From assembly GCA_041690595.1 (NCBI GenBank), contig JAWLHB010000028.1, positions 62,001 through 104,562 on the forward strand: a stretch of 42,562 bases of DNA, in the 5' to 3' direction. Origin of the DNA: Lentisphaeria bacterium (GTDB lineage: Bacteria; Verrucomicrobiota; Lentisphaeria; JABSQK01; JAWLHB01). Within the stretch, counting starts at the first letter, position 1. Every line of letters begins with the position of its first letter. This document shows, one piece after another, positions 3,471 to 38,958 of the stretch. The notes beneath the pieces are model-generated. The model did not search any database, was not told where the DNA came from, and worked only from the letters and a program-made list of their open reading frames with translations. Position numbers and translations under genes: made by a program.

Positions 3471-3644
3471 GGCGATTTCGGAATGTCCGTAAACGTAGTC
3501 ACCTTTTGAAGGAAATCAACGTCATGTTGTACTCGAGCACGATAGCCGTTTCTGCTCCGTTGCCGCACTGGCGGATGTCCTTCCGCGAATACCAACTCTG
3601 GACTTACTGCGGCCAGGAACGGCCCATGGCAGTGCCCCCCCTTC

Positions 3645-7489: not shown

Positions 7490-7535
7490 GGTTTCACTTC
7501 CTGGTTTCGTTGGCATTCATGTAAGGTCCGCGGTA

Positions 7536-9349: not shown

Positions 9350-9370
9350 CGCCACTCCCGTAAATAATAG

Positions 9371-9402
9371 CGTAAACCACAATGTAGTTTACGATGTGGT
9401 TT
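9371..9402. promoter_or_regulatory. Putative operator: palindrome plus a third tandem half-site
   Basis: CGTAAACCACA-A-TGTAGTTTACG (one mismatch, 9371-9393) followed by ATGTGGTTT; overlaps the predicted regulator promoter. Confidence 0.65.
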
Positions 9403-11125: not shown

Positions 11126-11368
11126 GACTCTTTCTCTGCCTCTATCTACAAGGGTGATACGTGGGGACCTTCCTCTCGAACCCCGGTATGTGAGGACTGC
11201 CAACGACTCTGGCGGCTCTTCATCCTACTGCAACCTGGCGCTTGCCGATATTGGTTTCGCCAAACCGCACATGCCGCATGGTCGTTCTGTCCTCACGTGA
11301 ACCTGTGTATGAGACACGCGGTTCCCCCGCTGAGTTGCATTGGGGGAGGCCAAAATGACCGCAGCGCC

Positions 11369-16444: not shown

Positions 16445-16474
16445 AACAAGACCGCCTCCTTGTCGGAGCTGGGT

Positions 16475-17713
16475 CTATTGAGAGACGCTGTTCTTGATCG
16501 CTTGGGCCATTTCGTCATCGATACCATCAATATCCGTTAAGTCTTCCAGGTTTGCTTCACGCAGGCCATCTGTCGACAGAAATCCGTTGTTGACCAACGT
16601 TTGCGCGATGTCGCGCGAGATGCCGGGGAGCGCGGCCAGGGTGTTCACCGCCTGACTGATGCGTTCCTCAAGAGAGGCTTCCTTCTTCTCCTCAACCTTC
16701 TTGATGTCGATCTTCCAGCCCGTGATTTTGTGGGTGAGCCGCGCGTTCTGTCCGCGCTTGCCAATCGCCAGCGAAAGCTGGTCCGGCTCCACCAGGATCC
16801 GTACCTGCTTGTTTGCTTCGTCGATCTGTATCGACTTGATCTGGGCGGGCTGCAGCGCATTGGCCACGTAGGTGCGCAAGTCCGCATCCCAGCGGATAAT
16901 GTCTACCTTCTCTCCGCTCAGTTCGCGTACAATGGTCTTCACCCGTGAGCCACGAATGCCGACGCATGCTCCGACAGGATCAACTTTGGGCTCCTTGCTG
17001 TGAACGGCGATCTTGCTGCGAAAGCCAGGCTCCCGCGCGACTGCCTTGATCTCAACAATACCCTCCGCGATCTCGGTAACCTCACGCTCGAAAAGCCGTT
17101 TCACCAGCTCGGGATCCGTACGCGAGACAACGAGGATCGGTCCTGGCCGCTTCACGTTGACCTCCGTCAGGATGCAGCAGATATGATCGCCATTCTGATA
17201 ATCTTCCGAGGGGACGCGGCCGCTGTGGCGCAGGACGCCTTCCGCACGTCCGAAATCGATGACGACCTCGCCCTGCTCATAGCGCGTGACGACGCCATAG
17301 AGGATGTCGCCAATACGATCGGTAAATTCATCGCGTACGCGATCCTTTTCCGCCTGGCGGAGCCGCTGCATGATGCCCTGCTTGGCTGTCTGCGCGGCGA
17401 TTCGTCCAAAATTGCTGGGTGTCACTTCCCACTCTACCTGCTGGCCGAGTTCGGCTTCGGGAAGTTTGGTGCGAGCCCGTTCGAAGGAAATTTCGCTATC
17501 CGGATGCATCACGTGCTCGACAACCGTCAACGTTGCGGTTGCCTGCAAGTCGCCCGTCTTGGGATCAAGCTTTACCTTCAGATCATTGGCGGGGCCGACT
17601 GCCTTTCGGGCAGCTGAAACGAGCGATTCCTCGATGACGCGCACCAGTACATCACGTTCCAGACCACGATCACGCTCGAGGTAATCCAGTATGGCTACCA
17701 GTTCATTGTTCAT
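16475..17713 (-). CDS. nusA: Transcription termination/antitermination factor NusA
   Basis: FGRIAAQTAKQ, AREPGFRSKIAV, DPVGACVGIRGSRV, LSLAIGKRGQNARL; start MNNEL at 17713 with GGAGG RBS. Confidence 0.99.
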   Translation of the reverse strand: MNNELVAILDYLERDRGLERDVLVRVIEESLVSAARKAVGPANDLKVKLDPKTGDLQATATLTVVEHVMHPDSEISFERARTKLPEAELGQQVEWEVTPSNFGRIAAQTAKQGIMQRLRQAEKDRVRDEFTDRIGDILYGVVTRYEQGEVVIDFGRAEGVLRHSGRVPSEDYQNGDHICCILTEVNVKRPGPILVVSRTDPELVKRLFEREVTEIAEGIVEIKAVAREPGFRSKIAVHSKEPKVDPVGACVGIRGSRVKTIVRELSGEKVDIIRWDADLRTYVANALQPAQIKSIQIDEANKQVRILVEPDQLSLAIGKRGQNARLTHKITGWKIDIKKVEEKKEASLEERISQAVNTLAALPGISRDIAQTLVNNGFLSTDGLREANLEDLTDIDGIDDEMAQAIKNSVSQ

Positions 17714-17830
17714 TAAGTTGGTGCCTCCGGCATCAAAGATTTCGGGCGCAGTCACCCACATATGTGGGGGAGGTGGCTAGCCGGCAAAAGCCGGTGTCCA
17801 CGGGGCTCCAAGTGGGTGCCGCCTATAAAG

Positions 17831-20209: not shown

Positions 20210-22117
20210 GTGAAATTCGGTAAGAAATCAAAAGACGAGACGCCAAAAAACGAGATGGCAGAGCCGACCGAAATGGATGCGGGGCACGAGGAGGCAGGCG
20301 TCGATCCGTCCTCCATCTGTGACGATTTTCTGCGCAACGGCATGACCGGCGACAAGTACCGGATGCATGGCCAGATCGGGCAAGGCGGGATGGGAACCGT
20401 CTTCAAGGTTTTCGATGAAGGGTTGAAGCGGACGACCGTCCTCAAGGTGCTGTCGCCGGAGATGATGGACAATCCGCAATATCTCAAGCGCTTCGTCGAT
20501 GAAGCCCGGATCACGGGGCAGCTGGAGCATCCCAATATCATACCCGTGCACGATATCGGGGTGGTGGATCGATCCAGAATCTACTTCTCCATGAAGTATA
20601 TCGAAGGGGAAGAACTGGGCGGAATCCTGCGCCGCCTGCGCCGCGGCGATGAAGATGCAGCCAAACGCTATAGCCTCTATTCACTGCTGACCATCTTCCG
20701 CAAGGTCTGTGACGCTGTCGCTTTTGCGCACTCGCGCGGCGTCATACATCGCGACATCAAACCCGACAATATCATGGTCGCCAAGTACGGCGAAGTGATG
20801 CTCGTTGATTGGGGACTGGCGCGGCCGGAAAACGCCCACGACCGCGATACGTGGCCCGAGGGAGACATGATCACCGCCATGAACGATACCTCCAGCCTGA
20901 AGACCCGCGACGGGATGATTAAGGGGACGCCTGCCTACATGGCGCCCGAGCAGGCCAGCGGGCAGGTCGGCCTGGTTGACCGGCGCACGGATATTTTCCT
21001 TCTGGGGTCGACTCTGTATGCCATTGCGACGCTCCACCCTCCGTACACTGGCGACAATATCTACGACATTCTCGACAATGCCGAAGCCGGGGTCTTTCAA
21101 GCGCCGGGCCAGCGGGCGCCCGAGCGGCAACTGCCCGAGGAACTCTGCCGCATCATCATCCGCGCCATGGCACTCGATCCCGATGAGCGCTATCAATCGG
21201 TGGAGCGGCTGTCGGAGGATCTGGATGCCTTACTCGAAGGTCGCACCGTCTCGATCCACAAGCGCTTCCTGGCTGGAGAAGTCCTCATGAAGGAAGGCGA
21301 TCACGGCGATGAAGCCTACGTTATCGTTTCGGGCGAAGTGGAAGTGTTGAAAACGATCCGCGGGCAGGATGTGGCGGTCGTCACCCTCCGAGAGGGGGAT
21401 ACAGTGGGTGAGATGGCGATGATTTCCAATGCCCCGCGATCCGCAACCGTTCGCGCCACCCGGAATACGGATGTGGTCGTCATAACCGAAGATCTGATCA
21501 CCCAAGGGCTTGCCAAGTTGCCGCCATGGATGGGGAAAACCGTGGAAGCGGTGGTCGATCGCCTGCGCGCGGCGACATCGCAGATTCACCCGTTAGCGGC
21601 TGGTGACTGCACCTATCATGTCGTTAACCAGCTTCGCCTCCTCTATCCATACTGGGGATGTCCGGTTCATGTGCCGGAGGGGGGGCAACGCATCGCACTG
21701 CCGCTCGAGGCGACCGTGCTCGAAATCGCCATCACGCTCTGCCTCGATAAGGATCGTGTGGCTGAACTTCTGTCGCGGCTGCTCGACGCCCGTCTGGTGC
21801 TCCCGCTCGAAGGTGGCACCATCCATATCCCTCATTATCAGCTCTTCTGCGACTTTGTCGCCTTTGCGCGCCAGAAATGCCACGTCGAGTCTCCACTCTG
21901 GCGCTCTTCGATGTCCACGCTTTACGCGAGTGCGAATCAACTGGCCCTTTCGCAGGTCCTGGATGAATCCGGGGCGGAGAGCGACGAAGTGGCGGAGGTA
22001 CTGGCTCCCGATGTTCAGGAACTGCTCGGTTGTGAAACGCCGGACGAGCTGGCCGACTGCTTTGAATCCATCTTCAGCAACCTGCAGCAGCAGGTCGGCA
22101 GCCAGAGCGGGGGGTGA
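20210..22117 (+). CDS. Ser/Thr protein kinase fused to a cyclic-nucleotide-binding domain and a CRP-like winged helix
   Basis: IGQGGMGTV, HRDIKPDN, DWG, GTPAYMAPE; AGEVLMKEGDHGDEAYVIVSGEVEV, GEMAMISNAPRSATVRA; EIAITLCLDKDRVAELLSRLLDARLV...IHI. Confidence 0.88.
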   Translation: MKFGKKSKDETPKNEMAEPTEMDAGHEEAGVDPSSICDDFLRNGMTGDKYRMHGQIGQGGMGTVFKVFDEGLKRTTVLKVLSPEMMDNPQYLKRFVDEARITGQLEHPNIIPVHDIGVVDRSRIYFSMKYIEGEELGGILRRLRRGDEDAAKRYSLYSLLTIFRKVCDAVAFAHSRGVIHRDIKPDNIMVAKYGEVMLVDWGLARPENAHDRDTWPEGDMITAMNDTSSLKTRDGMIKGTPAYMAPEQASGQVGLVDRRTDIFLLGSTLYAIATLHPPYTGDNIYDILDNAEAGVFQAPGQRAPERQLPEELCRIIIRAMALDPDERYQSVERLSEDLDALLEGRTVSIHKRFLAGEVLMKEGDHGDEAYVIVSGEVEVLKTIRGQDVAVVTLREGDTVGEMAMISNAPRSATVRATRNTDVVVITEDLITQGLAKLPPWMGKTVEAVVDRLRAATSQIHPLAAGDCTYHVVNQLRLLYPYWGCPVHVPEGGQRIALPLEATVLEIAITLCLDKDRVAELLSRLLDARLVLPLEGGTIHIPHYQLFCDFVAFARQKCHVESPLWRSSMSTLYASANQLALSQVLDESGAESDEVAEVLAPDVQELLGCETPDELADCFESIFSNLQQQVGSQSGG

Positions 22118-22226: not shown

Positions 22227-22255
22227 TTGAGATAGTAAATGGTAATTCATAGACT
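22227..22255 (+). promoter_or_regulatory. Sigma70-type promoter of pilin copy 1
   Basis: TTGAGA-N17-TAGACT; AT-rich palindrome AAAATATTTT just upstream (22206-22215). Confidence 0.6.
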
Positions 22256-22338
22256 GTACTCAGAACTTGGGAATGCGTAGCCTCAGGCTAGCTGGACCCA
22301 ACCAAAAAGAGTTAACCAAATCCTCAAGAGGAACCACC

Positions 22339-22842
22339 ATGAAGAATCGCAAGAAAGGTTTCACCCTGATCGAGCTGCTGGTCGTCGTGGCGATTATCGC
22401 CATCCTGGCCGGAATGCTCCTGCCCGTGCTGAGCAAGGCCCGTGAAAAGGCCCGTCGCGTCAATTGCGCTGGTAACCTGAAGCAGATCGGTCTCGCTCTG
22501 CTCATGTACTCCGGTGACTTCGACGGCTTCTTCCCGAACCCCAACGACCTGACTGCGCCGCCTGCGAACAACTTCGAGCCATTGGCTTCCGGCAACTACG
22601 TCCAGGACGGCAAAGTCTGGGCATGCCCGAGCCGCAGCGAAGTGCTGACGCTGGCCTCGTACTCCGCCTACCGTTACATCGGTTCCGGTCTGAAAGATGA
22701 CAACTCCGATGCTACCGGCAACACGCTGGCTTACGACACCACGATGAACCATCCCAACAACGACTGGTCGAATGCTCTGTTCATCGACGGTCACGTTGAA
22801 GGTGGCAATCCGCGTAACAAGGACTTCGCGAAGAATAACTAA
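22339..22842 (+). CDS. Short type IV pilin-like (DUF1559-type) protein, tandem copy 1 (167 aa)
   Basis: [59 protein letters not shown]. Confidence 0.93.
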
Positions 22843-22869
22843 TTCTCGCATGGTTCTTGTCTAGGTTCT

Positions 22870-22903
22870 GGCGAGGAGACTTCGGTCTCCTCGCCTTTTT
22901 TTT
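22870..22903 (+). terminator. Intrinsic terminator after pilin copy 1
   Basis: GGCGAGGAGAC-TTCG-GTCTCCTCGCC-T8. Confidence 0.95.
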
Positions 22904-22923
22904 AAAAGATCTTCTTCTTCATC

Positions 22924-22952
22924 TTGCAATCGAAGGGAGCAATTGCTATGAT
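22924..22952 (+). promoter_or_regulatory. Sigma70-type promoter (extended -10) of pilin copy 2
   Basis: TTGCAA-N17-TATGAT with TGn directly before the -10. Confidence 0.7.
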
Positions 22953-23028
22953 GCTGCTTAGCGTATGAGTATCGCGGACCTAAGGCTCAACGCAAACAAC
23001 ATCAAAACTCTCCAAAGGAGAAGAACGC

Positions 23029-23547
23029 ATGAGAAGTCGCAAGAAAGGTTTCACCCTCATCGAGCTGCTGGTCGTCGTGGCGATTATCGCCATCCTGGCC
23101 GGAATGCTCCTGCCCGTGCTGAGCAAGGCTCGTGAAAAGGCCCGTCGTGTCAATTGTGCCGGCAACCTGAAGCAGATCGGTCTCGCTCTGCTCATGTACT
23201 CCGGTGACTTCGACGGCTTCTTCCCGCAAGTCAACTTGAGGTACGAAGACGCAGCCAACCTGGTCGCGTCGAACAACTTCGAGCCGCTGGCAGAAGGCAA
23301 TTACATTCAGGACGGCAAGGTCTGGGCATGCCCGAGCCGCAGCGAAGTGCTGACCATGGCTCACTACTCGGCCTATCGTTACATCGGTTCGGGTCTGAAA
23401 GACGACAACTCCGATGCCACCAGTAATACGGTGGCCCACGACATGACCTTGAACCACCCGAACAACGACTGGTCGAACTCGCTGTTCATCGACGGCCACG
23501 TCGAAGGTGGCAATCCGCATAACAAGGACTTTGCGAAGAACAACTAA
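23029..23547 (+). CDS. Short type IV pilin-like (DUF1559-type) protein, tandem copy 2 (172 aa)
   Basis: [57 protein letters not shown]. Confidence 0.93.
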
Positions 23548-23575
23548 TTCTCGCACTGGTTCTTGTCTGTGTTCA

Positions 23576-23607
23576 GGCGAGGAGGCTTCGGTCTCCTCGC
23601 CTTTTTT
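23576..23607 (+). terminator. Intrinsic terminator after pilin copy 2
   Basis: GGCGAGGAGGC-TTCG-GTCTCCTCGCC-T6. Confidence 0.93.
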
Positions 23608-23718
23608 GTACCCATTCAGTGGCATTGTGAGCCCTGCGTGAAGCAAGGCGCGAGGAGGGGTGTATAGTGACGGTGTCGGCGACATCACCTGAGCGTTTGC
23701 GGGAAGACGGGAGAGACT

Positions 23719-25584
23719 ATGGAGCAATGGATCCAAGGGCTTGGCAACGGCATGGTGGGAATGCTGGTGGTGCTGAGTATGCTCGCGGGAGCATCGGCGG
23801 TCGGCAGTGTGATGCTGCGCCTCTGCCAGGTTCGGGTACGACGCCATCCGATCGATGCCGTGCTGGTCGCGACCATGATTGGACTGGCTTTGATCACCTG
23901 GGGAGTGGGGGCCATCGGCTGGCTCTGGCTTCCGGGCCCCAAGGGGAGTGTGCTGCTGAGTGTTGTGCTGGGATTGGCTGGTGCAGTTGCTGTGGCTGTG
24001 CGGCACCGAGAATGCATCAGCATGCTGCGCCATCTTCTTCATCGTCCGGGGGTGCTTTTCCTGATCCCGCTGCTCATGTTGCCCCTGGGAAAAGCGCTGG
24101 CTTACCCGGTTGGCTGGGATGAGCTTGTCTATCATCTGGCAATACCCATGCGCTGGCTGGCCGACGGCAAGGCAATTGTTTATTCGGATATGCCCTATTC
24201 GGCGTTGCCGAGCGGGCTGGAACTGGTGAATGTCCTGATGCTCGGGGCGGGCGGGATCACTGCTCCCGGCGCGCTCAACTATCTTCTGTGGCTCGTGTGT
24301 GCGGCGCTGCTGTATCGCCTCCTGCGATCCACGGCGTCCCGACTGACATCGGTAATTGTGACCGCGGTACTGCTGTACACGCAGGTTATGCTGATGCTGG
24401 CGTTGGAAGTTTATGTCGAGATGCCGATGGCCGCGTGTCTGCTGGCGGGATTGATGATTCTGCGGCACGAGCGGGGACGCCTTGCCATCAAGGTGTGTGT
24501 GCCGGTGGCGCTGCTATGTGGTTTTGCCAGCGCGATGAAACCAACCGGGGTGCTGCTGGCGCCTGCCCTCCTGATCGTGGCTTGGCGGCTGCTGAAACCT
24601 TTGACATTTTCCCATATCTGGCGTGTGTTGATCGTCTCGGGCCTTGTTTTTCTGGTCGTGATCCTGCCTTTCTTCATGCGACCGTGGGTGGCCACCGGCA
24701 ATCCGCTTTATCCCTATTATGCTTCAGTCTTCACCCCCATGCAGGATGCGACACTGCAGATGAGTGACTATTATCACCAGGGTTCGATATTGTATGGACT
24801 GGAGGGCTGGTGGACGTTGCCGATCAGTCCGTTCGCGTTAGGATGGATGCGCGCGGAGTACGATGGCACCTATGGGTATCAATGGCTCATCATCCTTGCT
24901 GTGCTCCTGTGCAGCATGGTCTGGAAGCGGCAAATATCGGAGATGACGATCGCCGGTGCGCTCTGCTTTTTCGTTTGGTTCGCAACCGCGCAGCAGGCCC
25001 GATTCGCGCTGTCGGCTGTTGTTCTGCTGTGGCTCGCCGGCGGCAGGGCGATCGGGCAACTGCGAGGTTGGTATCGCCATTCCGTGCTGGCCGCCCTGGC
25101 GGTTGGCGCGATCTTCAGTGTGGGCTCCAGCTATTGGCATCGCAGTCTGATCCACTGGAAGACGGCGCTCGGCGCCATTTCAACCGCCGACAATCTCTAC
25201 CGATGGACAGGCTCAGGTTACCTGCCCATCGCCGATGCCGTTTCTGTATACACGGAGCCCGATGCGTGTATTCTCATGCTCTTCGAGCATCGAACGCTCT
25301 ACATACCGCGACAGGCGCGAATCGGCACCCCATTCTGGCAGGATGCGGTATTCATGCCGCCTGAGCAATACTCCGGCGTGGAGGCATTTGTTGAGGAATT
25401 GCACCGCGCTGAGGCTGATTATGTCGTATTGGGCTTTACCTGGCTGGATCCCGATCGAGTGCCTGCCTATCTTCAGCGATCGCAGGCGCTGCTCTATACA
25501 GCGCTCGAGGCGATAGGCAGTGGCGCTCTCGAGGTCGTCTACAGGGACAGTACGCACATGTTGCTGAGGGTTCGAGAACCATGA
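23719..25584 (+). CDS. Polytopic membrane GT-C-fold glycosyltransferase (ArnT/PMT/GT39-like)
   Basis: Many TM helices; first-loop motif WDELVYHLAIP..W; GFASAMKPTG; WVATGNPLYPY; QQARF; soluble C-terminal domain. Confidence 0.72.
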   Translation: MEQWIQGLGNGMVGMLVVLSMLAGASAVGSVMLRLCQVRVRRHPIDAVLVATMIGLALITWGVGAIGWLWLPGPKGSVLLSVVLGLAGAVAVAVRHRECISMLRHLLHRPGVLFLIPLLMLPLGKALAYPVGWDELVYHLAIPMRWLADGKAIVYSDMPYSALPSGLELVNVLMLGAGGITAPGALNYLLWLVCAALLYRLLRSTASRLTSVIVTAVLLYTQVMLMLALEVYVEMPMAACLLAGLMILRHERGRLAIKVCVPVALLCGFASAMKPTGVLLAPALLIVAWRLLKPLTFSHIWRVLIVSGLVFLVVILPFFMRPWVATGNPLYPYYASVFTPMQDATLQMSDYYHQGSILYGLEGWWTLPISPFALGWMRAEYDGTYGYQWLIILAVLLCSMVWKRQISEMTIAGALCFFVWFATAQQARFALSAVVLLWLAGGRAIGQLRGWYRHSVLAALAVGAIFSVGSSYWHRSLIHWKTALGAISTADNLYRWTGSGYLPIADAVSVYTEPDACILMLFEHRTLYIPRQARIGTPFWQDAVFMPPEQYSGVEAFVEELHRAEADYVVLGFTWLDPDRVPAYLQRSQALLYTALEAIGSGALEVVYRDSTHMLLRVREP

Positions 25585-25585
25585 T

Positions 25586-28282
25586 ATGCACTGCAAGCCA
25601 TCCCGAGATCGCGTCATGAACCGCGTTGCCGACATCGTACTGCATGGCTATATCTGGTTGCTGGCGGGACTCATTCTGTTTAGCTATCCGCTGGGGCTGA
25701 TTCCCGCCTCCGTTCGACTGGACTCGCCGGTTGTGCGAATCGGCATGATAATGGCTGGCGTCGTGCTTGCCTCCGGCGCCTGGATGTTTCGGCAGCTTTC
25801 GACGCGACGATATGTGGTCATCAGCGGCTCAGGATTGCTACTGCTTTTCGCTGGATTGTTTCTGCCGCCGGGTCTGAACGGCAGCGCCAACTATCTGGTC
25901 CTGCCGGCGGCCTATCTTGCCGGAACGTGGGGTGTTGTGTGCCTGGCGCTGGTGAGCTTTCGCTTGCCGAGATGGTGGTGGCCGCTGGCGCTGATCTTTC
26001 TTGTGGCGGTTGGTTGGCAGCCATTGCGTCCGCGGATCGATGCATTCTCCGCGGTGGAAATGCTGGCATTGGTTGCGGCGCCGCTGGCTGTTGCGTCTGT
26101 CATGCGCTGGCGGCCGACGCTGGTGCGCATGGTGGTCGCCGCCTTGGCCCTATTCTGGCTGTTATCGCTGGTGAAGGGCATGGATCAGTGGATTCGCGGG
26201 CAGGAGGTGATCGGTTTCGCGATGAATCGCAACTGGTTTGCCACGGCACTTCTGGCCACGGCGCCATGGGTGCCGCACGCGCTGCGCGAGTGGTGCTCGA
26301 TGTCGATCCAGTCCTGGCGTTGGCGGGTATCGGCCGCGGCGGTGAGTGTGATGACACTTCTGCTGGTCTATCAATGCGAGAGCCGGGCAGCCTGGCTCGC
26401 ACTTATCTGCTACGGGCTGCTGCTGCTTTTCTGGAAATGGTCGCGCTCGCGACAGCGGTTGATTCTGGGCGCGACCCTGCTGCTGGCCGTCTTCGCGGCG
26501 GTGATTCTCTTTCGGGCGGAGGTGGGCACCGCGATGGAGAGGGACATTCGCCTTCCGCTCTGGAAGGGGACATTGCGGCTGATTGCCGATCAACCCGCCA
26601 TGGGCGTTGGCCCAGGCAGGTATGTCGAGGAACAGATTCTGCGTCTGGATGAATCCTATCACCGCCGATTGATGGCGGCGCCGCTCGTCTCGCATCCACA
26701 CAATGAGCTTCTGCATGTGGCCGCTGCCGCGGGCGTTGTGCCGGCGTTGGCCTGGCTGCTGCTGATGGTGTCCGTTCTCCGGCGGTTTCCGTCTGAGGAC
26801 GATTCCGTGCATCTGGCGAGATTCGGTGCGTTTGTCCTGCTTCTGCACGGGATGCTGGACATGGTGCTTGTGCAGCCGCCGGGCAGCATTGTTGCGTTTG
26901 TCCTGATCGGGATGGTCTGGATGCCGCGAACAGGCGCCGTGGTATTTCCGGCGCGTTGGATGCGGGCGCTGCCGGGGCGTGTGCTGGTGGGGCTGCTGAT
27001 CGCGGGCGCCTTGGTCTGGAGTGTGGCCGAGACGAGCCGGCAGCTGGGATGGGGATGGCACTTCCGACGCGGACATCAGTATCTGCAGATTCAGGATCTT
27101 TCGACGGCGCTGACCCATTTCAGAACGAGCACCAGGATACAGCCGGAGCGCGTCGCGGGTTGGTACGCCAAGGCAACGGTCGAGATCCGGAATCAGCAGG
27201 CGGAGCAGGCGCTGGAGAGCCTTGATCAGGTGGTTCAGCTGAACAGGAATTACGCGCACGTGCATCGTCTTCGCGGCAACACGCTTCTCCGGCTTGGGCA
27301 GGCGGAGGACGCAATGGAGGCCTATCGATCCGATCTTGCCCTGCATCCGAACAGCCTGGCAACGCTGCTCAACTATTATACCGCTGCATTTGCTGCTAAC
27401 AGAGCTGGTCAGGCTGGGGCCATTGCCGGACATGTGCGCGCTGTCAGTGGTGGCTGGTTGCGCCAGTTGCATGGCGAGCGAGGAGAGCGTCTCCGGGAAG
27501 AGTGGCAGGCGGCTGTCTCCGGCGGCGACGTCGCGCGGGCCGTCGACCTGGCAAACCGCTTGACGGATCACCCAAATCTGCGGTTGCAGATGGCGGATCC
27601 ACTGCTCTACACTACCGCTGTGGGGGGCGAGTTTCCCGGTAATTATGTCCATGGCACCTATGCGGCTGCCGACGTTGCCGGTTGGCGCGCGCATAGGCTT
27701 CGGGCCGAGGTAATCGGTTCAGCCGGCGCCAGTGTCGAGTCCGTCGGCCAGCTCGTGCGACACTTCGCGAGCCAGGTGGCCGTGGCGCCGGAGGCCAACG
27801 TTGCCTTGCCAGAGGAGGTCTGGCTGGAGGCAAAGGGGCAGCTTCGGGATATTCATGCTTCCCTGGCCTGGCTGATGAACGGGATCGAGGGGGTGCAGGC
27901 GCTCACCTATTGCCCTGAGGCGAAGACCGAGGAGTGGGCTGTCTACGCTCTCCTGCCGAGCCACCTGCTTCTGCGATGCGATCCGAAAAACGGCATCGTG
28001 AAGGCGGTTTCGTCCAGCGACGTACCGGCGGATTTCGGCATGGTCGCCCGCCTGGTGATACATCCCGCTGACTTTTTCATGCGGAACCAGATTCTCTACA
28101 TTGCACTAGGTTCCTTTGGTGCCGGTGACCACTGGCTGCGCAAGGAATGGCCATTGGTCAGAACGATCGAGACGCTGCAGCGGTTTGCAGCGCTGGCTAA
28201 ACCGATTAACGTACAAGCTCGTCTTGACGAAGCCTCCCTGATCGAATTCAACCGACGTCTGCAACAGCGACCGGCAGAATGA
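25586..28282 (+). CDS. O-antigen ligase family (Wzy_C; WaaL/PglL-like oligosaccharyltransferase) protein with TPR repeats, paralog 1
   Basis: NRNWFA, ESRAAWLAL, RLPLWKGTLRLIADQPAMGVGPG, HPHNELLH, HGMLD; TPR region ~27050-27400; alternative start 25616. Confidence 0.85.
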   Translation: MHCKPSRDRVMNRVADIVLHGYIWLLAGLILFSYPLGLIPASVRLDSPVVRIGMIMAGVVLASGAWMFRQLSTRRYVVISGSGLLLLFAGLFLPPGLNGSANYLVLPAAYLAGTWGVVCLALVSFRLPRWWWPLALIFLVAVGWQPLRPRIDAFSAVEMLALVAAPLAVASVMRWRPTLVRMVVAALALFWLLSLVKGMDQWIRGQEVIGFAMNRNWFATALLATAPWVPHALREWCSMSIQSWRWRVSAAAVSVMTLLLVYQCESRAAWLALICYGLLLLFWKWSRSRQRLILGATLLLAVFAAVILFRAEVGTAMERDIRLPLWKGTLRLIADQPAMGVGPGRYVEEQILRLDESYHRRLMAAPLVSHPHNELLHVAAAAGVVPALAWLLLMVSVLRRFPSEDDSVHLARFGAFVLLLHGMLDMVLVQPPGSIVAFVLIGMVWMPRTGAVVFPARWMRALPGRVLVGLLIAGALVWSVAETSRQLGWGWHFRRGHQYLQIQDLSTALTHFRTSTRIQPERVAGWYAKATVEIRNQQAEQALESLDQVVQLNRNYAHVHRLRGNTLLRLGQAEDAMEAYRSDLALHPNSLATLLNYYTAAFAANRAGQAGAIAGHVRAVSGGWLRQLHGERGERLREEWQAAVSGGDVARAVDLANRLTDHPNLRLQMADPLLYTTAVGGEFPGNYVHGTYAAADVAGWRAHRLRAEVIGSAGASVESVGQLVRHFASQVAVAPEANVALPEEVWLEAKGQLRDIHASLAWLMNGIEGVQALTYCPEAKTEEWAVYALLPSHLLLRCDPKNGIVKAVSSSDVPADFGMVARLVIHPADFFMRNQILYIALGSFGAGDHWLRKEWPLVRTIETLQRFAALAKPINVQARLDEASLIEFNRRLQQRPAE

Positions 28283-30867
28283 CTATCCTGCGTACCAGAC
28301 TTCTGTGCATCTACCTGCTGCTGGCGGGATTGCTGCTGCTTGTCGTCTATCCGATTGCCGCGTTGCCCATGGCGAGGTTCTCGCTGGAGTACGACGTGAG
28401 CCTGCCTGGAATGGCTATTGTGGGGCTGTTGTCGATCCCGGCGATAGCGGTAGTGCGCTGGCGCCCAACACGCTGGCTCGGGATCGTTGTCAGCGTTTTT
28501 CTGCTGACGCTGGTCATTGCCGTCGTCTCCACCAGCTTCAGCATGGAAGCAGTGGAACTGATGGCGCGGGTGCTGGTGCCGTTGGCCGTGGCAGGAGCCG
28601 TCTGTGAACTTCCCCTGGCGTGGCGGCGGTACATGATCTGGGTGCTCGGGATATACTGGTTGACCCAGGTCAGCAGCGGATTCCTGAGCCTGGCCCGCGG
28701 ATACGAGGTCATCGGCATCGCCGGCAACCGTAACTGGATGGCCGCTTTGCTGTTGATGACTGCACCATGGGCAATGGCCACCATTCTGGATCTGCTCTCC
28801 GGATTGCGGCGGCGGCGCCTGGCGGTCACATGTTCCGTGGTCCTGGTTCTTGTACCGACGCTGTGGCTGCTGGCGGCTGCATCGAGTCGGGCGGCCTGGC
28901 TGGCGCTGGGCGTCCTTCTATTCTGGTTCCTCTGGATGATATTTTCGTGGCGTCTGCGCATTCTGCTGGGAGTGCTGATGTCGCTCATCATGGTGTCGAT
29001 CCTGATTCTGCACACAGATACCGTTATTCGCACAATGAAGGATGACGTACGGCTGCCGATCATCGGGCGTACCGTCGCGATGATGTCTGATTACGATGTC
29101 TTGACCGCGGCAGCGGAAGCGGTGATGACGCGCTCGCTGACTCCCTTTCGGGAGATGCGCAACGTGAGTGGGGTGGGGCCTGGCAATTATCGGCGGGACT
29201 TCACGCCATACCGGGCGCAGTCCACCTATGGCCAGCGCCTCAATGCGGCGGCCACGACCATTCACCCCCACAACGAACTGCTCAATATTGGGGCGCAGAT
29301 CGGACTTCTGGGGGCTCTGGCCTGGCTGGCTTTGCTCTGGCCCGTTATTCAGAAACCGGTCTGGCCGTCGACGTTTCATGGCGTCGCCAAGGTATCCGCG
29401 TTGCTTGTTTTCACGCACGGCATGTTCGACATGACCCTGGTGCAGGCGCCAGTCAGTTACGCGGCGCTGATTGTGCTTGGGATCTGCTGGACGCCGCACA
29501 TGCGGCTGCCGGTTCATGGTGAAGGGAAGGACGGGGCATGGATATCGTCACGCGCGGCGGTGCTTGCGCTTGCGACAGTGATGGTTGGCCTGGTTGTGGT
29601 GGTATCGGTACAGGATGTTCGTTCCGACGTGCTGATGCGACGCACGGAGCTTTTGAAGCGGGTGGGGCGAAACGCCGAAGCGGCTGAATTGTACGGCCGT
29701 GCGCTGGAGATTTCGAACGACATCGGCGCGCTCTATCGCCTGGGCGCCATGCAGGTGGAGTACCTGGAGCAGCCGGAGGCGGCAATCGAGACGCTGCAAA
29801 AGGTCGTGGAGCAGGATCCGAATTATGCGCATGTGCATAGCCTGCTTGCTTTCGCGTATCTGCTGCGGGGCAAGCTGGGACCCGCGTTGGAGCATGCACT
29901 TCGCGAGTGTCAGTTGTACCAATACGATGCGGTAGCCTGGCAGAAGTACTTCAGCTATCTGGCTGCAGCCAATGAACGCACGGGTATGGTGAAGGTGGGG
30001 GAACGCATCGACGCATTGTACTTGGAGAAAGCTCTGCTGCGCAGGAGCAAGGATGACCTCCGGGAGATTCTGGAGCGTTGGCAAGTTGCGGTGGCGGACG
30101 GTGCCGAAGAGGCCGCCATAGCCGCCGCGGAGGAGGCTTGCCTCCATCTGCAGATCACCTTTCTGGATCCGCTATTCCAGTTTCTGGCGGGCGATACCGC
30201 CCTGCCGTCAAGCTTTCTGTACGATCGCTTCAACACGTCCGACTATGCGTACTGGCGGCAATTGCTCTTTGCCATGGAACTGCTGGGCGCATTGCCTGAG
30301 ACCGAGAGTCCCGGTGAGGAGCTGCAGCGGCTGGTTCAGGGCTTTTCGCGACAGCTGAAGATCGAGCCGGGGATCAAGGAGTTCCGGTATCTGGATCAGG
30401 CCTGGCGTGAAGAAGCGGTGAATCCCATGTCGGCGTATTGCGCGCTTTCCTTCGTCTTACGTTCCCGGGGATGGTGGATGGATATCGCCGTGGATGCGCA
30501 GGGTCAGCCGGTTTCGGGCATCGCTCGTGGCTTCGGGCAAGTTGTGGAGTGCAGGTTGACGGATGGCAGCGTGCGTCCTCTCGAGCCAGACCAGGTGAAG
30601 GAAATCGGCCAACGCCACCTCTCCTTCTTCTACTTTCAGGAGTTCTTTTTGAAGAACCGCATATTGGGGCTCCTGTGCCGGCATGCACTGGAAACCTTTC
30701 CGATAGGCTTCGATCACTATCCCACGCTGCGGCTCTGGAATCACCGGGCTGAACTCACACCCCAGTCCGTGCCCCCGTTCCTGTCATTGCCGAACTACTG
30801 CGTGCAGGATCAGTTCCACCACATAGCTGCCCGCCTTGGCCAAGTGCAGGAGCCGAGCCCAGAGTGA
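28279..30867 (+). CDS. O-antigen ligase family (Wzy_C) protein with TPR repeats, paralog 2
   Basis: GNRNWMA, SSRAAWLAL, DVRLP, GVGPGNY, HPHNELLN, HGMFD; TPRs; ATGA overlap with paralog 1. Confidence 0.85.
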   Translation: MTILRTRLLCIYLLLAGLLLLVVYPIAALPMARFSLEYDVSLPGMAIVGLLSIPAIAVVRWRPTRWLGIVVSVFLLTLVIAVVSTSFSMEAVELMARVLVPLAVAGAVCELPLAWRRYMIWVLGIYWLTQVSSGFLSLARGYEVIGIAGNRNWMAALLLMTAPWAMATILDLLSGLRRRRLAVTCSVVLVLVPTLWLLAAASSRAAWLALGVLLFWFLWMIFSWRLRILLGVLMSLIMVSILILHTDTVIRTMKDDVRLPIIGRTVAMMSDYDVLTAAAEAVMTRSLTPFREMRNVSGVGPGNYRRDFTPYRAQSTYGQRLNAAATTIHPHNELLNIGAQIGLLGALAWLALLWPVIQKPVWPSTFHGVAKVSALLVFTHGMFDMTLVQAPVSYAALIVLGICWTPHMRLPVHGEGKDGAWISSRAAVLALATVMVGLVVVVSVQDVRSDVLMRRTELLKRVGRNAEAAELYGRALEISNDIGALYRLGAMQVEYLEQPEAAIETLQKVVEQDPNYAHVHSLLAFAYLLRGKLGPALEHALRECQLYQYDAVAWQKYFSYLAAANERTGMVKVGERIDALYLEKALLRRSKDDLREILERWQVAVADGAEEAAIAAAEEACLHLQITFLDPLFQFLAGDTALPSSFLYDRFNTSDYAYWRQLLFAMELLGALPETESPGEELQRLVQGFSRQLKIEPGIKEFRYLDQAWREEAVNPMSAYCALSFVLRSRGWWMDIAVDAQGQPVSGIARGFGQVVECRLTDGSVRPLEPDQVKEIGQRHLSFFYFQEFFLKNRILGLLCRHALETFPIGFDHYPTLRLWNHRAELTPQSVPPFLSLPNYCVQDQFHHIAARLGQVQEPSPE

Positions 30868-31760
30868 GTACCATGCTCGAACGCATCCAGGAATTCATCG
30901 CCTACGCCAGGATCGAAAAGGGACTCGCGGATCTCTCGCTGGCAGCCTATCAGGGGGACCTTGTGCAAGTGGCGACCTTTCTGGAAAAGCGCGAGGTCGT
31001 CTCCCTGGAAGCCGTGACCCGGGATCATCTGCTGGACTTTCTGGAGAGCTGCCGCGACGAGCAGGAAAGCTCCACGGTTGCCCGCAAGCTGGTCAGCATC
31101 AAAGTCTTCTTCCGCTTTCTGGCGGCGGAGCGGTACCTGACGAAGAATGTGACGGATGTGATGGACAGCCCACGATTGTGGCAGTTGCTGCCGGAGTTCC
31201 TGACTGAGGCCGAGGTCACGCGGCTGTTGAAGGTCTTCAAGAAGGCGCGCAGCCCACTGGCTCGGCGCAACTGGGCAATCATCGAATTGCTGTATGCATC
31301 TGGACTGCGGGCAAGCGAGCTGACGTCCCTGACCATCGACAATCTGCGGTTCGACCTGAATGTTGTGCACGTGATCGGCAAGGGGGGAAAGGGACGGCTG
31401 GTGCCAATAGGCAAGCCGGCGCAGGAGCAGATCAACTACTACGTGCAGCACATCCGTTCGCAACTGCTGCGGCATGGGCCGGTGCCGGAGGTCTTCGTCT
31501 CGAAGAATGGCCATCCGCTGACCCGCGACTGGATCTGGCGCATCGTCAAGAATGCGGCTCGTGATGCCGGTATTCAGAAGAATATCTATCCGCACATGCT
31601 GCGGCATTCCTTCGCCAGCCATCTCCTTGCCCACGGCGCGGATCTGCGCGTCATTCAGGAGATGCTGGGTCATGCGGACATCAGCACGACGCAGATCTAT
31701 ACCCACGTCAGCCAGGAGCATCTGGTACGTGCGCATCGCGCGTTTCATCCCCGGGGATAG
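30864..31760 (+). CDS. xerD: Site-specific tyrosine recombinase XerD
   Basis: EKGLA..SL.AYQGDL, LPEFLTEAEV, ELLYASGLRASEL, GKGGKGRLVP, PHMLRHSFASHLL.HGADLRVIQEMLGHADISTTQIYTHV, FHPRG; start GTG 30864 or ATG 30873. Confidence 0.92.
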   Translation: MSTMLERIQEFIAYARIEKGLADLSLAAYQGDLVQVATFLEKREVVSLEAVTRDHLLDFLESCRDEQESSTVARKLVSIKVFFRFLAAERYLTKNVTDVMDSPRLWQLLPEFLTEAEVTRLLKVFKKARSPLARRNWAIIELLYASGLRASELTSLTIDNLRFDLNVVHVIGKGGKGRLVPIGKPAQEQINYYVQHIRSQLLRHGPVPEVFVSKNGHPLTRDWIWRIVKNAARDAGIQKNIYPHMLRHSFASHLLAHGADLRVIQEMLGHADISTTQIYTHVSQEHLVRAHRAFHPRG

Positions 31761-34297: not shown

Positions 34298-34588
34298 ATG
34301 GCGGAGAGTGAAAGAATTGGCGTCAAGAACTGTGGCAGCTGTCATGAATGTCCGCTTGGGCAGGAATCACCTGACGCAAGCGGCACGGGGTGGCGGCTGG
34401 TGGCAAGCAGCGCGGGCGTCTTTCTCTGGCCATTGCTGGCGGCACTGGGCGGCTCCATGCTTGGGGGTGATCAGCAAAATGGACAACTGGTTGGCGGAAT
34501 CCTGGGCTTTGGTTTTGGGGCAGGTGTTGCCTGGGTGCTTTGCCGGCTAGTGTCTTCTCGAACGAAACGGGATACCGAATCACTATGA
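34298..34588 (+). CDS. Short RseC/MucC-like membrane protein heading the rnf operon
   Basis: GAGGAG RBS; CGSCHEC motif; two TM segments (VFLWPLL..; LVGGILGFGFG); ATGA overlap with rnfC. Confidence 0.65.
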   Translation: MAESERIGVKNCGSCHECPLGQESPDASGTGWRLVASSAGVFLWPLLAALGGSMLGGDQQNGQLVGGILGFGFGAGVAWVLCRLVSSRTKRDTESL

Positions 34589-35931
34589 CGACTTCAGCGC
34601 AAGGTGAGCGTTCATTTGCGCGGGGCATCCATCCCGGCGACTGCAAAGCGCTGGCCATGGAAGCTGCCATCGAGGTCCTGCCGACTCCATCGGCGGTGAC
34701 CATTCCCCTGCAGCAGCACCTGGGTGCGCCCTGCAAGAACATCGTTTCCGCGCGTCAGCAACTGGAAGTGGGGGATGTCGTGGGCGAAGCGGGCGGCTTC
34801 GTCTCGGCGCCGGTCCATGCCAGTGTGCGCGGCAAAGCAGCCAAGGAAGGCGTGGCGACGCTGCCCAACGCGCGGCACGTGGCCTCCGTTCCCATCAAGG
34901 CGGACGACGAGCAGCCGCTTTCGGGGCAGGCGCTCTATGATGATGTTTACGGTGGAAGCTGGCAGTTGGAGCCGCTCGAGACATACGAGCCGGCGGCGAT
35001 AGCGCAGGCAACGCTGAATGCAGGGCTGGTAGGGCTTGGCGGCGCGGCCTTTCCGACACATGTGAAGCTGCGCCGGCAGGAGAAGAAGCCGATTCAGCAC
35101 CTGCTCATCAATGGAGCGGAGTGCGAGCCGTACCTGACGGCGGACTACCGCGTGATGCTGGAGGCGCCGGCGGCGATTATCGCCGGGGCGCTGCTGGGCA
35201 AGGCGGCGACTGGCGCGGCAGAGGTGATCATCTGCATCGAGGACAACAAGCCGAAGGCGATCGCGAGCTTGCGCAAAGCGGCGGAAGGCACGGCGGTCCA
35301 AGTCCTTCCCTTGAAGACGAAGTACCCGCAGGGCGGTGAAAAGCAGCTGGTGTGGGCCGTCCTTCGCAAGGAAGTGCCAACTGGTGGGCTGCCGCTCGAC
35401 GTGGGTGTGGTGGTGATGAACGTAGGGACGTCGGCATCGCTGGCGCGGGCAGTGCTGCGCGGCAAACCGCTTACGCATCGGGTGGTGACGGTCTCCGGCA
35501 GCGGCGTCAAGCAACCGAAGAACCTCCTGGTGCCGGTCGGCGCTTATTATGAGGATCTGGTGAATTTCTGCGGAGGGCTGACGGACGATGCCGCGCGGAT
35601 CATCTCGGGCGGTCCGATGATGGGCTTCACCGTTGGCGATCTGAGAGTACCGGTGACGAAAGGGACGAGCGGCGTGACGGTGCTGACCCATGCGGATGTT
35701 CAGCGAGCGGAGGAAACGGCGTGTGTGCGCTGTGGCCGCTGCGTAGATGTCTGCCCGATGCGGCTGGTACCGACGAAACTGGCGATGGCGAGTCGCTGGG
35801 AGCAGCCGGATCTGGCGAAGCGGTATCATATCGCGGCGTGCATGGAGTGTGGCTGTTGTGCTTACGCCTGTCCGGCAAACATTCCGCTGGTGCAGCTCAT
35901 CCGCGTCGGCAAAATATTGGTAAGGAAGTAA
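34585..35931 (+). CDS. rnfC: Rnf/Rsx electron transport complex subunit C
   Basis: GIHP, IPLQQHLGAP, GLVGLGGAAFPTHVK, INGAECEPYLTADYRVM, KYPQGGEKQL, GGPMMG, CVRCGRCVDVCP, CMECGCCAYACP. Confidence 0.97.
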   Translation: MTTSAQGERSFARGIHPGDCKALAMEAAIEVLPTPSAVTIPLQQHLGAPCKNIVSARQQLEVGDVVGEAGGFVSAPVHASVRGKAAKEGVATLPNARHVASVPIKADDEQPLSGQALYDDVYGGSWQLEPLETYEPAAIAQATLNAGLVGLGGAAFPTHVKLRRQEKKPIQHLLINGAECEPYLTADYRVMLEAPAAIIAGALLGKAATGAAEVIICIEDNKPKAIASLRKAAEGTAVQVLPLKTKYPQGGEKQLVWAVLRKEVPTGGLPLDVGVVVMNVGTSASLARAVLRGKPLTHRVVTVSGSGVKQPKNLLVPVGAYYEDLVNFCGGLTDDAARIISGGPMMGFTVGDLRVPVTKGTSGVTVLTHADVQRAEETACVRCGRCVDVCPMRLVPTKLAMASRWEQPDLAKRYHIAACMECGCCAYACPANIPLVQLIRVGKILVRK

Positions 35932-35934
35932 TCG

Positions 35935-36927
35935 ATGGCGAAGGAACCGGAAAGCGACAGGACTCTGGCACAGGCGCACGTGGCGCCATCGCCGCATATC
36001 TCGAATACGAGCTTCACGACACGTCGCATGATGCTGGACGTGATCATCGGGCTGCTGCCGGCGATTGCGGTTGGCATCTATGTCTTCCACTGGGGAACGG
36101 TTATCCAGCTGGCGCTGGCGGTGGCTGCCTGCATCTCGGCGGAGTCGATCTTCACGGCGATGCGGGGAAGGCGGGCGAATCTGGGCGATCTCTCAGCCTT
36201 GGTGACGGGGCTGATCCTGGGCATGTCGCTGCCGGCGGCGGCGCCGTGGTACGTGGCCGTCATCGGCGGCTTTGCGGCGATCGGTCTGGGCAAGGTCGTC
36301 TTTGGTGGGCTTGGCTACAACATCTTCAACCCGGCGATGGTGGGACGGGCATTTGTCATGCTCAGCTTTGCGGGAGTGATGGGCGCGGCGCAGTATGAGA
36401 AGGCGATGCTTCACGTGGATGGCATTGCGTCGGCGACACCTTTGACCGCGGCGCGGGCTGGGGGAATCCTGCCCGAGCTTTGGCCGACCTTCATCGGGAC
36501 GGTGAATGGATCGGTGGGCGAGATCAGCGCTCTGGCGCTGCTGTTGGGCGGCCTTTATCTCTGCCTGCGGCGGGCGGCCAGCTGGGAGATTCCGGCGGGG
36601 ACGCTGGCGGGCACGCTGGTATGGGCGGCACTGGCGTACTGGCTCAACCTGACGTCGCTTCCGCCGGGATTGCATCTGTGCAGCGGCGCGTTGATGTTCG
36701 GGGCCTTCTTCATCGCCACGGATCCTGTCTCGAGCCCGCTGACGCCGCTTGGCAAGTTTATCTTCGGCGTGGGGGTGGGTACCTTCGTGATGCTGTTGCG
36801 CGTCTTCAGCGGATATCCGGAAGGGATGATGTTCGCGATCCTGCTGATGAACGCATTGGCGCCGATGATCAACCGGATGACTGTCCCCCGCCCCTTGGGT
36901 GGACCTGCCCCACAACCCGCAGGCTAG
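35935..36927 (+). CDS. rnfD: Rnf/Rsx complex subunit D
   Basis: SPHI, FGGLGYNIFNPAMVGRAF, SATPL (FMN-Thr), GSVGEIS, GAFFIATDPVSSP, GYPEG. Confidence 0.97.
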   Translation: MAKEPESDRTLAQAHVAPSPHISNTSFTTRRMMLDVIIGLLPAIAVGIYVFHWGTVIQLALAVAACISAESIFTAMRGRRANLGDLSALVTGLILGMSLPAAAPWYVAVIGGFAAIGLGKVVFGGLGYNIFNPAMVGRAFVMLSFAGVMGAAQYEKAMLHVDGIASATPLTAARAGGILPELWPTFIGTVNGSVGEISALALLLGGLYLCLRRAASWEIPAGTLAGTLVWAALAYWLNLTSLPPGLHLCSGALMFGAFFIATDPVSSPLTPLGKFIFGVGVGTFVMLLRVFSGYPEGMMFAILLMNALAPMINRMTVPRPLGGPAPQPAG

Positions 36928-36941
36928 CACGGAGAATGGTA

Positions 36942-37556
36942 ATGACGGAAGAAGCAAAAAGCGGCAGTTATCTGGGCCAGGCCTGGTTGGTGATCATCCT
37001 GGCCATTCTTTACGGCGCGGCTCTGGCAGCCGTGCAGATCGGCTGGTCCGATCGCATCGAGACGAACAAGCGCAACAAGATCTATGACCGCATCCCCAAC
37101 CTGGTAGGTTCTGAAGCTATCGTGGTCGAGGAGCGGCTGGTGACGGGCAAAGACGGCAGAGAGAAGACCGTCTACCGGGTCGCGGACACTGAAGGCAGCC
37201 TGATTGCCTGGGTGCTGCGAGCGGAGGGGCAGGGTTTTGCCGACAACATCGAGCTGCTGGTCAGCGTCGATCCCCTCTTCACGACAATCAAGGGAATGTC
37301 GGTGATCAGCCAGAAGGAGACGCCTGGACTCGGGGATCACATCACCAGTCCGGAGCGTTTTACCGGCCAGTTCGCGGGCATTACCGCGCTGAAGCCGCTG
37401 ACGGTGGTGAAGGAGACAGCCAGCGCGCCGCATGAGATTCAGGCGGTGACCGGCGCCACCATTTCGTCGGAGAGTGTGACGACGATCATCAACCGCGCTA
37501 TCGACAACTTCAAACAGCCTGTGCTGCAGTCAGAGCGTGAAAGGGAGACTACCTGA
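36942..37556 (+). CDS. rnfG: Rnf/Rsx complex subunit G
   Basis: N-terminal TM, GQGFADNI, ETPGLG, AVTGATISS (FMN-Thr); GGAGA RBS; track ORF is over-extended. Confidence 0.93.
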   Translation: MTEEAKSGSYLGQAWLVIILAILYGAALAAVQIGWSDRIETNKRNKIYDRIPNLVGSEAIVVEERLVTGKDGREKTVYRVADTEGSLIAWVLRAEGQGFADNIELLVSVDPLFTTIKGMSVISQKETPGLGDHITSPERFTGQFAGITALKPLTVVKETASAPHEIQAVTGATISSESVTTIINRAIDNFKQPVLQSERERETT

Positions 37557-37557
37557 T

Positions 37558-38190: not shown

Positions 38191-38193
38191 ACG

Positions 38194-38943: not shown

Positions 38944-38958
38944 GGAGGTTTTACACAT

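Follow-up and report, generated by a model that had tools for sequence, protein, structure and literature searches.

The DNA analyzed here, hereafter the window, is a stretch of 42,562 nucleotides from contig JAWLHB010000028.1 (positions 62,001 to 104,562) of the Lentisphaeria bacterium assembly GCA_041690595.1, a genome of 8.1 Mb. It carries two tandem type IV pilin-like genes, followed by a gene for a predicted glycosyltransferase of fold class C (GT-C) and by two genes for proteins, Wzy1 and Wzy2, that combine a Wzy_C domain with tetratricopeptide repeats (TPR). A sequence-only reading had proposed that this is a pilin glycosylation locus in a bacterium of the Planctomycetota-Verrucomicrobiota-Chlamydiota (PVC) group. 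Gene calls, Pfam searches and a motif check bore out the five genes, their plus strand and all the motifs quoted, and the named relatives of the host are Lentisphaeria. The genes and putative signals of the locus are listed in Table 1.

Table 1. Genes and putative signals of the pilin and glycosyltransferase locus, in window coordinates.
Feature	Position	Strand	Remarks
Putative sigma70-like promoter of pilin 1	22227-22255	+	9/12 consensus matches; pattern match alone
Pilin 1	22339-22842	+	167 aa, mature 160; Shine-Dalgarno-like stretch ahead of ATG at 22339
Putative intrinsic terminator after pilin 1	22870-22903	+	11-bp stem, UUCG loop, T run
Putative sigma70-like promoter of pilin 2	22924-22952	+	Extended -10 TG; pattern match alone
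Pilin 2	23029-23547	+	172 aa, mature 165
Putative intrinsic terminator after pilin 2	23575-23610	+	Near copy of pilin 1 terminator
GT-C(A)-fold membrane glycosyltransferase	23719-25584	+	621 aa, ~12 predicted transmembrane helices; DUF8201/DUF1420/PMT_2-like
Wzy1 (Wzy_C and TPR)	25586-28282	+	898 aa
Wzy2 (Wzy_C and TPR)	28279-30867	+	862 aa
XerD-like tyrosine recombinase	30864-31760	+	Translationally coupled to Wzy2

The enzyme genes are tightly packed, with a 1-nt gap between GT-C and Wzy1, an ATGA overlap between Wzy1 and Wzy2, and a GTGA overlap between Wzy2 and xerD. Because each pilin gene has its own putative promoter and hairpin/T-run terminator, the enzymes are probably expressed from a transcript that is separate from those of the pilins or reached by read-through. 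Promoter-like sites numbered 3 versus 0.6 in shuffled sequences, and terminators 3 versus 1.9; the terminator calls therefore rest on their 11-12-bp stems and not on their number. The XerD-like gene is probably a passenger, and no xerD match was obtained in the 12 loci screened.

Both pilins have a class III signal with a KKG/FTLIE cleavage site and pass the Pfam cut-offs for N_methyl (41.2 and 40.0 bits) and SBP_bac_10/DUF1559 (44.9 and 42.9 bits), with TIGR02532 also over its cut-off. They are 89-90% identical in amino acids and 86% in nucleotides, and the terminator is duplicated too; judged from these comparisons, they are recent duplicates. DUF1559 pilin-like genes number from tens to hundreds in bacteria of the PVC group, and this genome has 190 pilin-like open reading frames (ORFs). 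The window pilins belong to a conserved short clade that makes up a small minority of them: they are the genome's two best matches to the clade profile, of which both are part, and the clade has 2 strong matches among about 200 candidates. Clade pilins are present in 176 of the 301 genomes of the class. The spacing between the C-terminal His and DG is 11 residues in the window pilins versus 9 in most clade members; H-X9-DG is the label of this motif in DUF1559-type pilins, and no NCBIfam model of that kind was among the matches listed for them at E ≤ 0.1. When ranked by ribosomal-like codon use, against putative reference genes chosen by motif, the window pilins come second and third of the 190, after a 24-aa fragment. 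The genome encodes PilB/PilT-family ATPases and secretins, and such ATPases were found in 36 of 36 genomes tested. Codon use, the putative promoter and terminator of each gene, the conserved clade, and the assembly ATPases and secretins in the genome together make the clade pilin a candidate for the major subunit in a type IV filament. Three tandem short pilin-like genes (L250, contig C32:602-2267), whose signal peptides are degenerate, follow next in this genome by match to the clade profile and are possibly minor pilins.

As had been read from the sequence, both pilins end in Asn. Neither contains an N-x-S/T sequon, so that they lack this feature of clients of the N-oligosaccharyltransferase PglB; across the clade, N-x-S/T is present in 38 of 44 pilins, mostly at a conserved N-H motif. 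The C-terminal Ser/Thr of TfpO targets is missing too, the last residue being Ser in 2 and Thr in none of the 44 clade pilins. The acceptor proposed within DLTAPPA was not supported: pilin 2 lacks Thr65 (numbering of mature pilin 1, here and below), and 72% of the clade have a gap in this column. Both pilins retain Ser93 and Ser116, Ser or Thr is common at or next to those columns in the clade, and the alignment suggests Ser93, Ser116, Thr119 and Thr122 as better candidate acceptors. Ser91 was considered as a specific acceptor and rejected, being invariant also in family f6, in which both enzymes are missing; the CP[ST] motif, which 93 of the genome's 183 pilins contain, likewise counts against its specificity. 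In the f6 pilins, Ser/Thr has been lost at positions 93, 94, 115/116 and 121, a hint only, as this is a single lineage with uncertain orthology and alignment register.

The 621-aa protein encoded after the pilins, with its WDELVYHL motif at residue 133, matches no Pfam family at E ≤ 10 and no TPR family either, so its assignment as GT-C rests on fold. Its model (predicted local distance difference test, pLDDT, 74.5) ends in an alpha/beta domain of strands and helices. Foldseek matched 24 structures at E ≤ 0.001, every one of them a GT-C enzyme, and VIA gave Z scores of 19.6 for Pmt4 (root-mean-square deviation, rmsd, 3.7 over 343 residues), 19.5 for ArnT (rmsd 5.1 over 438) and 19.1 for ALG12. 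Identity to Pmt4 and ArnT is 12-15%, and the window protein differs from them by three extra N-terminal helices. Homologues carry PF26626/DUF8201 and PMT_2. Asp134 is found in 100% and Glu135 in 90% of 52 homologues, and the WDE loop is predicted, from hydropathy and charge, to be periplasmic. Given matches to GT-C folds only and an invariant Asp134, the protein is very likely, by prediction, an active GT-C(A) transferase, whose acceptor the fold cannot tell.

Both Wzy1 and Wzy2 contain the motifs SRAAW, RLP, GVGPG and HPHNE. In Wzy1, an O-ligase-fold domain at about residues 120-450 (R267, R322, H372, D425) precedes TPR at about 480-625, and Wzy2 has the same architecture (R204, R258, H331, D384); a Wzy_C domain was detected in 30 of 30 family members tested. 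In a profile alignment, R267/R322/H372 of Wzy1 and R204/R258/H331 of Wzy2 correspond to R191/R265/H313 in WaaL, the O-antigen ligase, their SR, D-x-R and HxH motifs being those placed on these three residues, which are described as binding undecaprenyl diphosphate and activating the acceptor (PMC10920833). Across 98 orthologues R322, H372 and D425 do not vary, and both window proteins retain them. The TPR is predicted to be periplasmic, and its surface residues H558, E583 and P588 are conserved in 81-94% of the same 98 orthologues. The enzyme classes that had been assigned by eye were upheld, namely a GT-C fold and an O-ligase fold with intact Arg/Arg/His and a predicted periplasmic TPR.

The Wzy1 model has low confidence (pLDDT 53). 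It matched WaaL of Cupriavidus metallidurans (PDB 7TPG) with Z 18.9 and rmsd 4.5 (313 of 403 residues aligned), and Foldseek listed TPR/helical-repeat proteins only. A full-length Wzy profile matched PDB 9RMK chain A, a 610-aa protein titled 'Oligosaccharyltransferase', over positions 25-541 including the TPR region (E 1.6e-13). This entry is unlisted in both fold searches with Wzy1, which excludes nothing. Single-sequence PDB searches with Wzy1 gave no ligase or oligosaccharyltransferase (OTase) among the matches listed, and a single-protein scan of genome contigs gave no confirmed relative. The complex predicted for Wzy1 (residues 120-625) and pilin 1 scored 0.00 and counts neither way. Wzy_C_2 and PglL_A, presumably the accessory Pfam domains of PglL-type OTases, were found neither in Wzy1 and Wzy2 at E ≤ 10 nor in the 30 members at E ≤ 0.01. 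Both proteins end in a C-terminal extension of about 270 aa (window positions 27461-28282 and 30001-30867) that is conserved in 17 aligned members; it is kept in this order and some families, is absent in the 600-aa forms of Victivallales type, and has no PDB match. A transglutaminase-like fold is a faint lead for it (Atlas 0.75-0.77; 2 of 17 members at E ≥ 0.036).

Wzy1 and Wzy2 are 29% identical and belong to different lineages, each of which also has members in genomes of the same order whose locus carries a single pilin. A quick tree, which holds Lentisphaeria proteins only, supported the Wzy2 line at 91 and left Wzy1 without a resolved placement. By their divergence the two are old paralogues, and the pilins recent duplicates, which speaks against any one-to-one pairing; a one-pilin-one-OTase arrangement was rejected for this reason, and with it went the two-pilin, two-OTase design that had been read into the locus. 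Since Wzy_C also covers polymerases, the two proteins could instead build an exopolysaccharide that is exported together with the pilus and receives side branches from the GT-C. One of the 30 members weakly matches an NCBIfam repeat-unit polymerase model, and conserved Arg, Arg, Asp and His are likewise a feature of one polymerase clan (PMC10920833). However, a His that aligns to His313 of the O-ligase occupies this position in 98 of 98 orthologues, where the same source gives Asp/Glu for ligase-clan polymerases, and no Wzz, Wzc or Wzx partner is present among the window genes. We regard a polymerase as very unlikely.

To assess conservation of the linkage, we used the 126 of 301 class genomes that carry the GT-C family. 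Flanking DNA was taken for 105 of 125 positive relatives; out of 112 loci, 7 that are second copies or the genome's own paralogue were not counted, and the main count covers the 82 GT-C loci whose upstream flank extends for 3 kb or more. As relatives are not independent, these counts show conservation and do not yield a p-value. Pilin, Wzy and GT-C stand in a row in 32 of the 82 loci, representing 13 of 27 genera and 5 families, and in 36 of all 105 (6 families), so that the proposed linkage passed the synteny check and recurs across the class. In these rows the pilin is always of the one short clade. Within 1,661 kb of GT-C loci, 42 pilins are clade members and 20 are not. A Wzy_C/TPR gene is directly upstream of, or fused to, the GT-C gene in 62 of the 82 loci. 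The fusions comprise nine single ORFs of 1,183-1,254 aa in genus g23 (L027-L035); the WDE motif was not found in one of them (L035). Hydropathy and charge put both the TPR tail of Wzy and the N-terminus of the GT-C outside, a topology that would be compatible with fusion. Of 14 same-order genomes, 7 have the pilin and Wzy no more than about 3 kb apart and the other 7 have them on different contigs; outside the class, the two are adjacent in 2 genomes from other classes of the phylum. Another 20 Wzy loci were examined, most of them from families without the linkage, and a clade pilin is directly upstream in 4. Finally, a clade pilin is present in 57 of the 82 class genomes with a Wzy orthologue versus 1 of the 17 without.

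In a genome with 190 pilin-like ORFs and 13 Wzy_C matches, common genes might be neighbors by chance, and the window's own gene order was seen in no relative. The chance expectation is, however, about 0.05 pilin-like ORFs in 4 kb on one strand and about 0.0005 for the two clade genes, and none of the 12 other Wzy_C-like genes has a pilin within 5 kb (one DUF1559 gene lies at about 5.1 kb). Because the expected density is this low and the same three orthologous families adjoin each other across the class, the neighborhood is not due to chance; the recurrence of the locus in relatives already refutes that explanation.

Related arrangements were also seen. Victivallis vadensis has the pilin-Wzy-GT-C triple in one record and Wzy-GT-C only in two others. 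Locus L223 reads pilin-pilin-Wzy-GT-C, with Wzy and GT-C split over several frames by sequencing error or decay. Membrane proteins with TPRs stand beside the pilin in G012, G014 and G259, with no GT-C family assignable. In lineages with a different gene order (L127, L128, L039, L136, L137, L037, L040), multi-transmembrane TPR/PMT_2 and GT2 genes often adjoin the pilin, Wzy or GT-C gene. A second cluster of the source genome (L246, L247; contig C7:121500-141000) combines a gene with PMT_2 and TPR, a DUF1559 gene, a Wzy_C/TPR gene unlike those of the window, and genes for a PilB-family ATPase and a secretin.

Planctomycetota have the GT-C family as well; their members make up a single branch (FastTree, support 99) that includes one row binned as Lentisphaeria. 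A DUF1559 pilin lies within 2.5 kb of the GT-C gene in 14 of 26 of these loci, upstream, downstream or on the other strand. Pilin density is 0.126 per kb near the GT-C gene versus 0.027 per kb farther out, 4.6-fold lower. The linked pilins are 43-94% identical to each other and distinct from the Lentisphaeria clade, and no Wzy orthologue was seen in the Planctomycetota GT-C loci. This linkage is one evolutionary event, but as another pilin is involved, it connects pilins with the GT-C itself. In six loci (L175, L183, L186, L191, L201, L202) the DUF1559 pilin and the GT-C are separated by a small lipoprotein-like gene; two of these genes were scanned and gave a carboxypeptidase-regulatory-like domain match below the cut-off.

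We therefore favor, with a probability of roughly 55%, a locus for O-glycosylation of the pilin by an uncharacterised ligase-type OTase together with the GT-C. From gene content, conservation, folds and residues, which are observed, we infer donor, acceptor and order of action as follows. The clade pilin, an abundant type IV subunit, would be held in the inner membrane by its N-terminal helix during modification. At the outer face of this membrane, the Wzy_C enzyme would move an oligosaccharide, made elsewhere in the genome and linked to a lipid diphosphate, en bloc onto the pilin; the two Arg would hold the diphosphate, the His would activate the acceptor, and the periplasmic TPR would select the protein. 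The GT-C would transfer a single sugar from a lipid-monophosphate donor onto Ser/Thr of the pilin or onto the glycan. The acceptors would be internal hydroxyls of the pilin. The Wzy_C and GT-C enzymes may act together, given that one genus has them fused and that their predicted topologies are compatible.

Several points weigh against this interpretation. Its support comes from genes, folds and synteny. In the window, terminators stand between the pilin genes and the enzyme genes, the codon bias of the pilins is weak (about 2 standard deviations), and their Ser/Thr content is 11-12% versus 13.0% in the genome's other pilins (17.5% in the clade). A GT-C paralogue of this genome, 41% identical, has no pilin within about 9 kb. 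In relatives, none of the 22 g23 loci, all fusions included, has an adjacent pilin, and in family f11 Wzy lies beside GT-C in only 2 of 13 loci. In family f6, 10 of 11 genomes tested have clade-like pilins, with no orthologue of either enzyme; its Wzy_C-like ORFs of 1,150-1,230 aa were considered as fusions and set aside, with no GT-C match in the fetched parts of three. No clade pilin was found at E ≤ 1e-10 in 13 of the 82 Wzy-bearing genomes, some of these cases probably reflecting contig breaks. Those 13 genomes, and the persistence of Wzy_C away from pilin genes, would suit a general protein O-glycosylation system, in which the Wzy_C/TPR protein, together with the GT-C, is a broad-range OTase of Lentisphaeria and the pilin is one ancestral client next to many exported proteins and many DUF1559 pilins. 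An orthologue is indeed present, mostly as a single copy, in 82 of 99 class genomes besides the source genome, and the general OTase PglL is described with a C-terminal TPR (PMC2943079) and as unlinked from pilE (bioRxiv 10.1101/2020.04.19.049825). Tight adjacency to a single pilin clade across families and classes, the joint absence of Wzy_C and clade pilin, and the lack of PglL-type Pfam domains in all 30 members examined argue the other way, and we find a general system rather unlikely, while giving it some weight.

Two further adverse points concern the folds. Among solved structures, WaaL 7TPG resembles the membrane domain of Wzy more than any OTase does, a membrane-only profile finding WaaL (E 3e-17) and not 9RMK at E ≤ 0.1; this would fit the grouping with WaaL ligases that the sequence-only reading had named as counter-evidence to itself. 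The GT-C fold is tied between the protein mannosyltransferase Pmt4 and the lipid A modifier ArnT. Both would be expected if Wzy_C were a WaaL-type lipid A-core ligase and the GT-C an ArnT- or Gtr-like modifier, that is, enzymes of lipopolysaccharide (LPS) or another surface glycan co-inherited with the pilin, and the genome does have a KdtA-family gene. Yet no LPS or Wzx/Wzz genes are found among the annotated window genes, the conserved TPR surface fits a protein partner, and the Planctomycetota GT-C follows the pilin without Wzy. Several other Wzy_C genes of the genome, some without TPR, adjoin Wzz/Wzc-, WecA-, sugar-transferase- or epimerase-like genes, and in the quick tree the Wzy1/Wzy2 family stands apart from the 12 other Wzy_C-like proteins (support 93, long branches). 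A role in surface glycans is accordingly unlikely in our view.

The WaaL-like, not PglL-like, ligase domain, the fusion and the GT-C-only loci would all be explained by a two-step scheme. The GT-C would prime an internal Ser/Thr of the pilin with one sugar, which the WaaL-type enzyme would then extend by ligating a lipid-linked oligosaccharide, much as WaaL uses the LPS core, while the TPR located between the enzymes would hold the pilin. Some genomes would then encode both steps in one polypeptide of 1,200 aa, and Planctomycetota would keep the priming step alone, on their own conserved DUF1559 pilin. Against this, and also against the favored O-glycosylation by both enzymes, GT-C was not found in 13 of the 14 same-order genomes, 7 of which pair pilin and Wzy_C. 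We hold the priming scheme to be quite unlikely.

Known pilin-linked enzymes offer partial parallels. TfpO and TfpM are pilin-specific OTases, Wzy_C enzymes encoded beside their pilin, which ends in Ser/Thr; the present locus shares a Wzy_C gene by the pilin and differs in the missing C-terminal Ser/Thr acceptor. In group IV Pseudomonas aeruginosa, the GT-C enzyme TfpW is encoded directly 3' of the pilin gene (bioRxiv 10.1101/2020.04.19.049825). Common to TfpW and the window GT-C are a nearby pilin, an acidic motif in a periplasmic loop, and size (646 versus 621 aa); internal Ser/Thr acceptors, reported for TfpW, are proposed here. Unlike the window GT-C, TfpW carries its own C-terminal TPR and needs no Wzy_C, whereas here the TPR is on the Wzy_C partner, a comparison made by description and not by sequence. 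PglL, PglS and WsfB, as far as described in the accessible portions of PMC12800693, PMC9239064 and PMC2943079, share with Wzy1 and Wzy2 a Wzy_C domain with Arg/Arg/His and a later acidic residue, the His-to-acid spacing being 53 here versus 55 in PglS; WsfB and PglL also have Wzy_C with a C-terminal periplasmic TPR (PMC2943079). The accessory Pfam domain of PglL and PglS is missing here (0 of 30 members), and those portions describe no partner GT-C, fusion or DUF1559-type client. WaaL 7TPG (CAZy GT121, fold class GT-C(B); PMC10920833) is alike in fold and in the R191/R265/H313 equivalents; the window proteins differ from it by their TPR and extension of about 270 aa, by pilin linkage and by lying outside an LPS cluster. 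By the tests run, the system resembles TfpW and WsfB/PglL/PglS and is a member of neither. No description of it was found in a literature search that reached few subscription papers, nor any paper on DUF8201-like GT-C proteins; the available part of an article on Akkermansia pili (PMC4960237) contains no pilin glycosylation data.

Elsewhere in the window, a Ser/Thr kinase fused to a cyclic nucleotide monophosphate-binding domain is encoded directly 5' of pilin 1 (20210-22117, +), and a kinase is also 5' of Wzy in a relative's locus (L020). Two more DUF1559-type pilin-like genes (7536-8240, -; 9541-10383, +), outside the conserved clade, flank a GntR/LacI-type regulator (8237-9382, -). ORFs with no Pfam family over the cut-off are found at 3902-7516 (-, 1204 aa), directly 3' of the pilin-like gene at 7536-8240, and at 2169-3509 (+, 446 aa), 15-914 (+, 299 aa), 10397-11203 (-, 268 aa) and 40793-42238 (-, 481 aa). 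Genes for Rnf-type electron transport (34540-39873, +) and infB and nusA (14303-17761, -) are ordinary.

Pilin-adjacent glycosylation enzymes are already known, and the principle is not new. The interest of the locus lies in the class-wide triple, the fusion of GT-C subclasses, the Planctomycetota link and a handle on the DUF1559 expansion. If the proposed function is true, the locus would define an O-OTase family outside PglL/PglS/TfpO/TfpM, give a role to DUF8201-like GT-C proteins, and provide a case in which the two GT-C subclasses are naturally fused. Glycoconjugate engineering would have use for new OTases that act on internal acceptor sites. Almost nothing on the DUF1559 pilin-like genes of PVC bacteria was found in the literature searched; the locus points to one conserved pilin of Lentisphaeria, and to another of Planctomycetota, as the subunit that is likely to be major and modified, and the question is testable in the cultured gut genus Victivallis.

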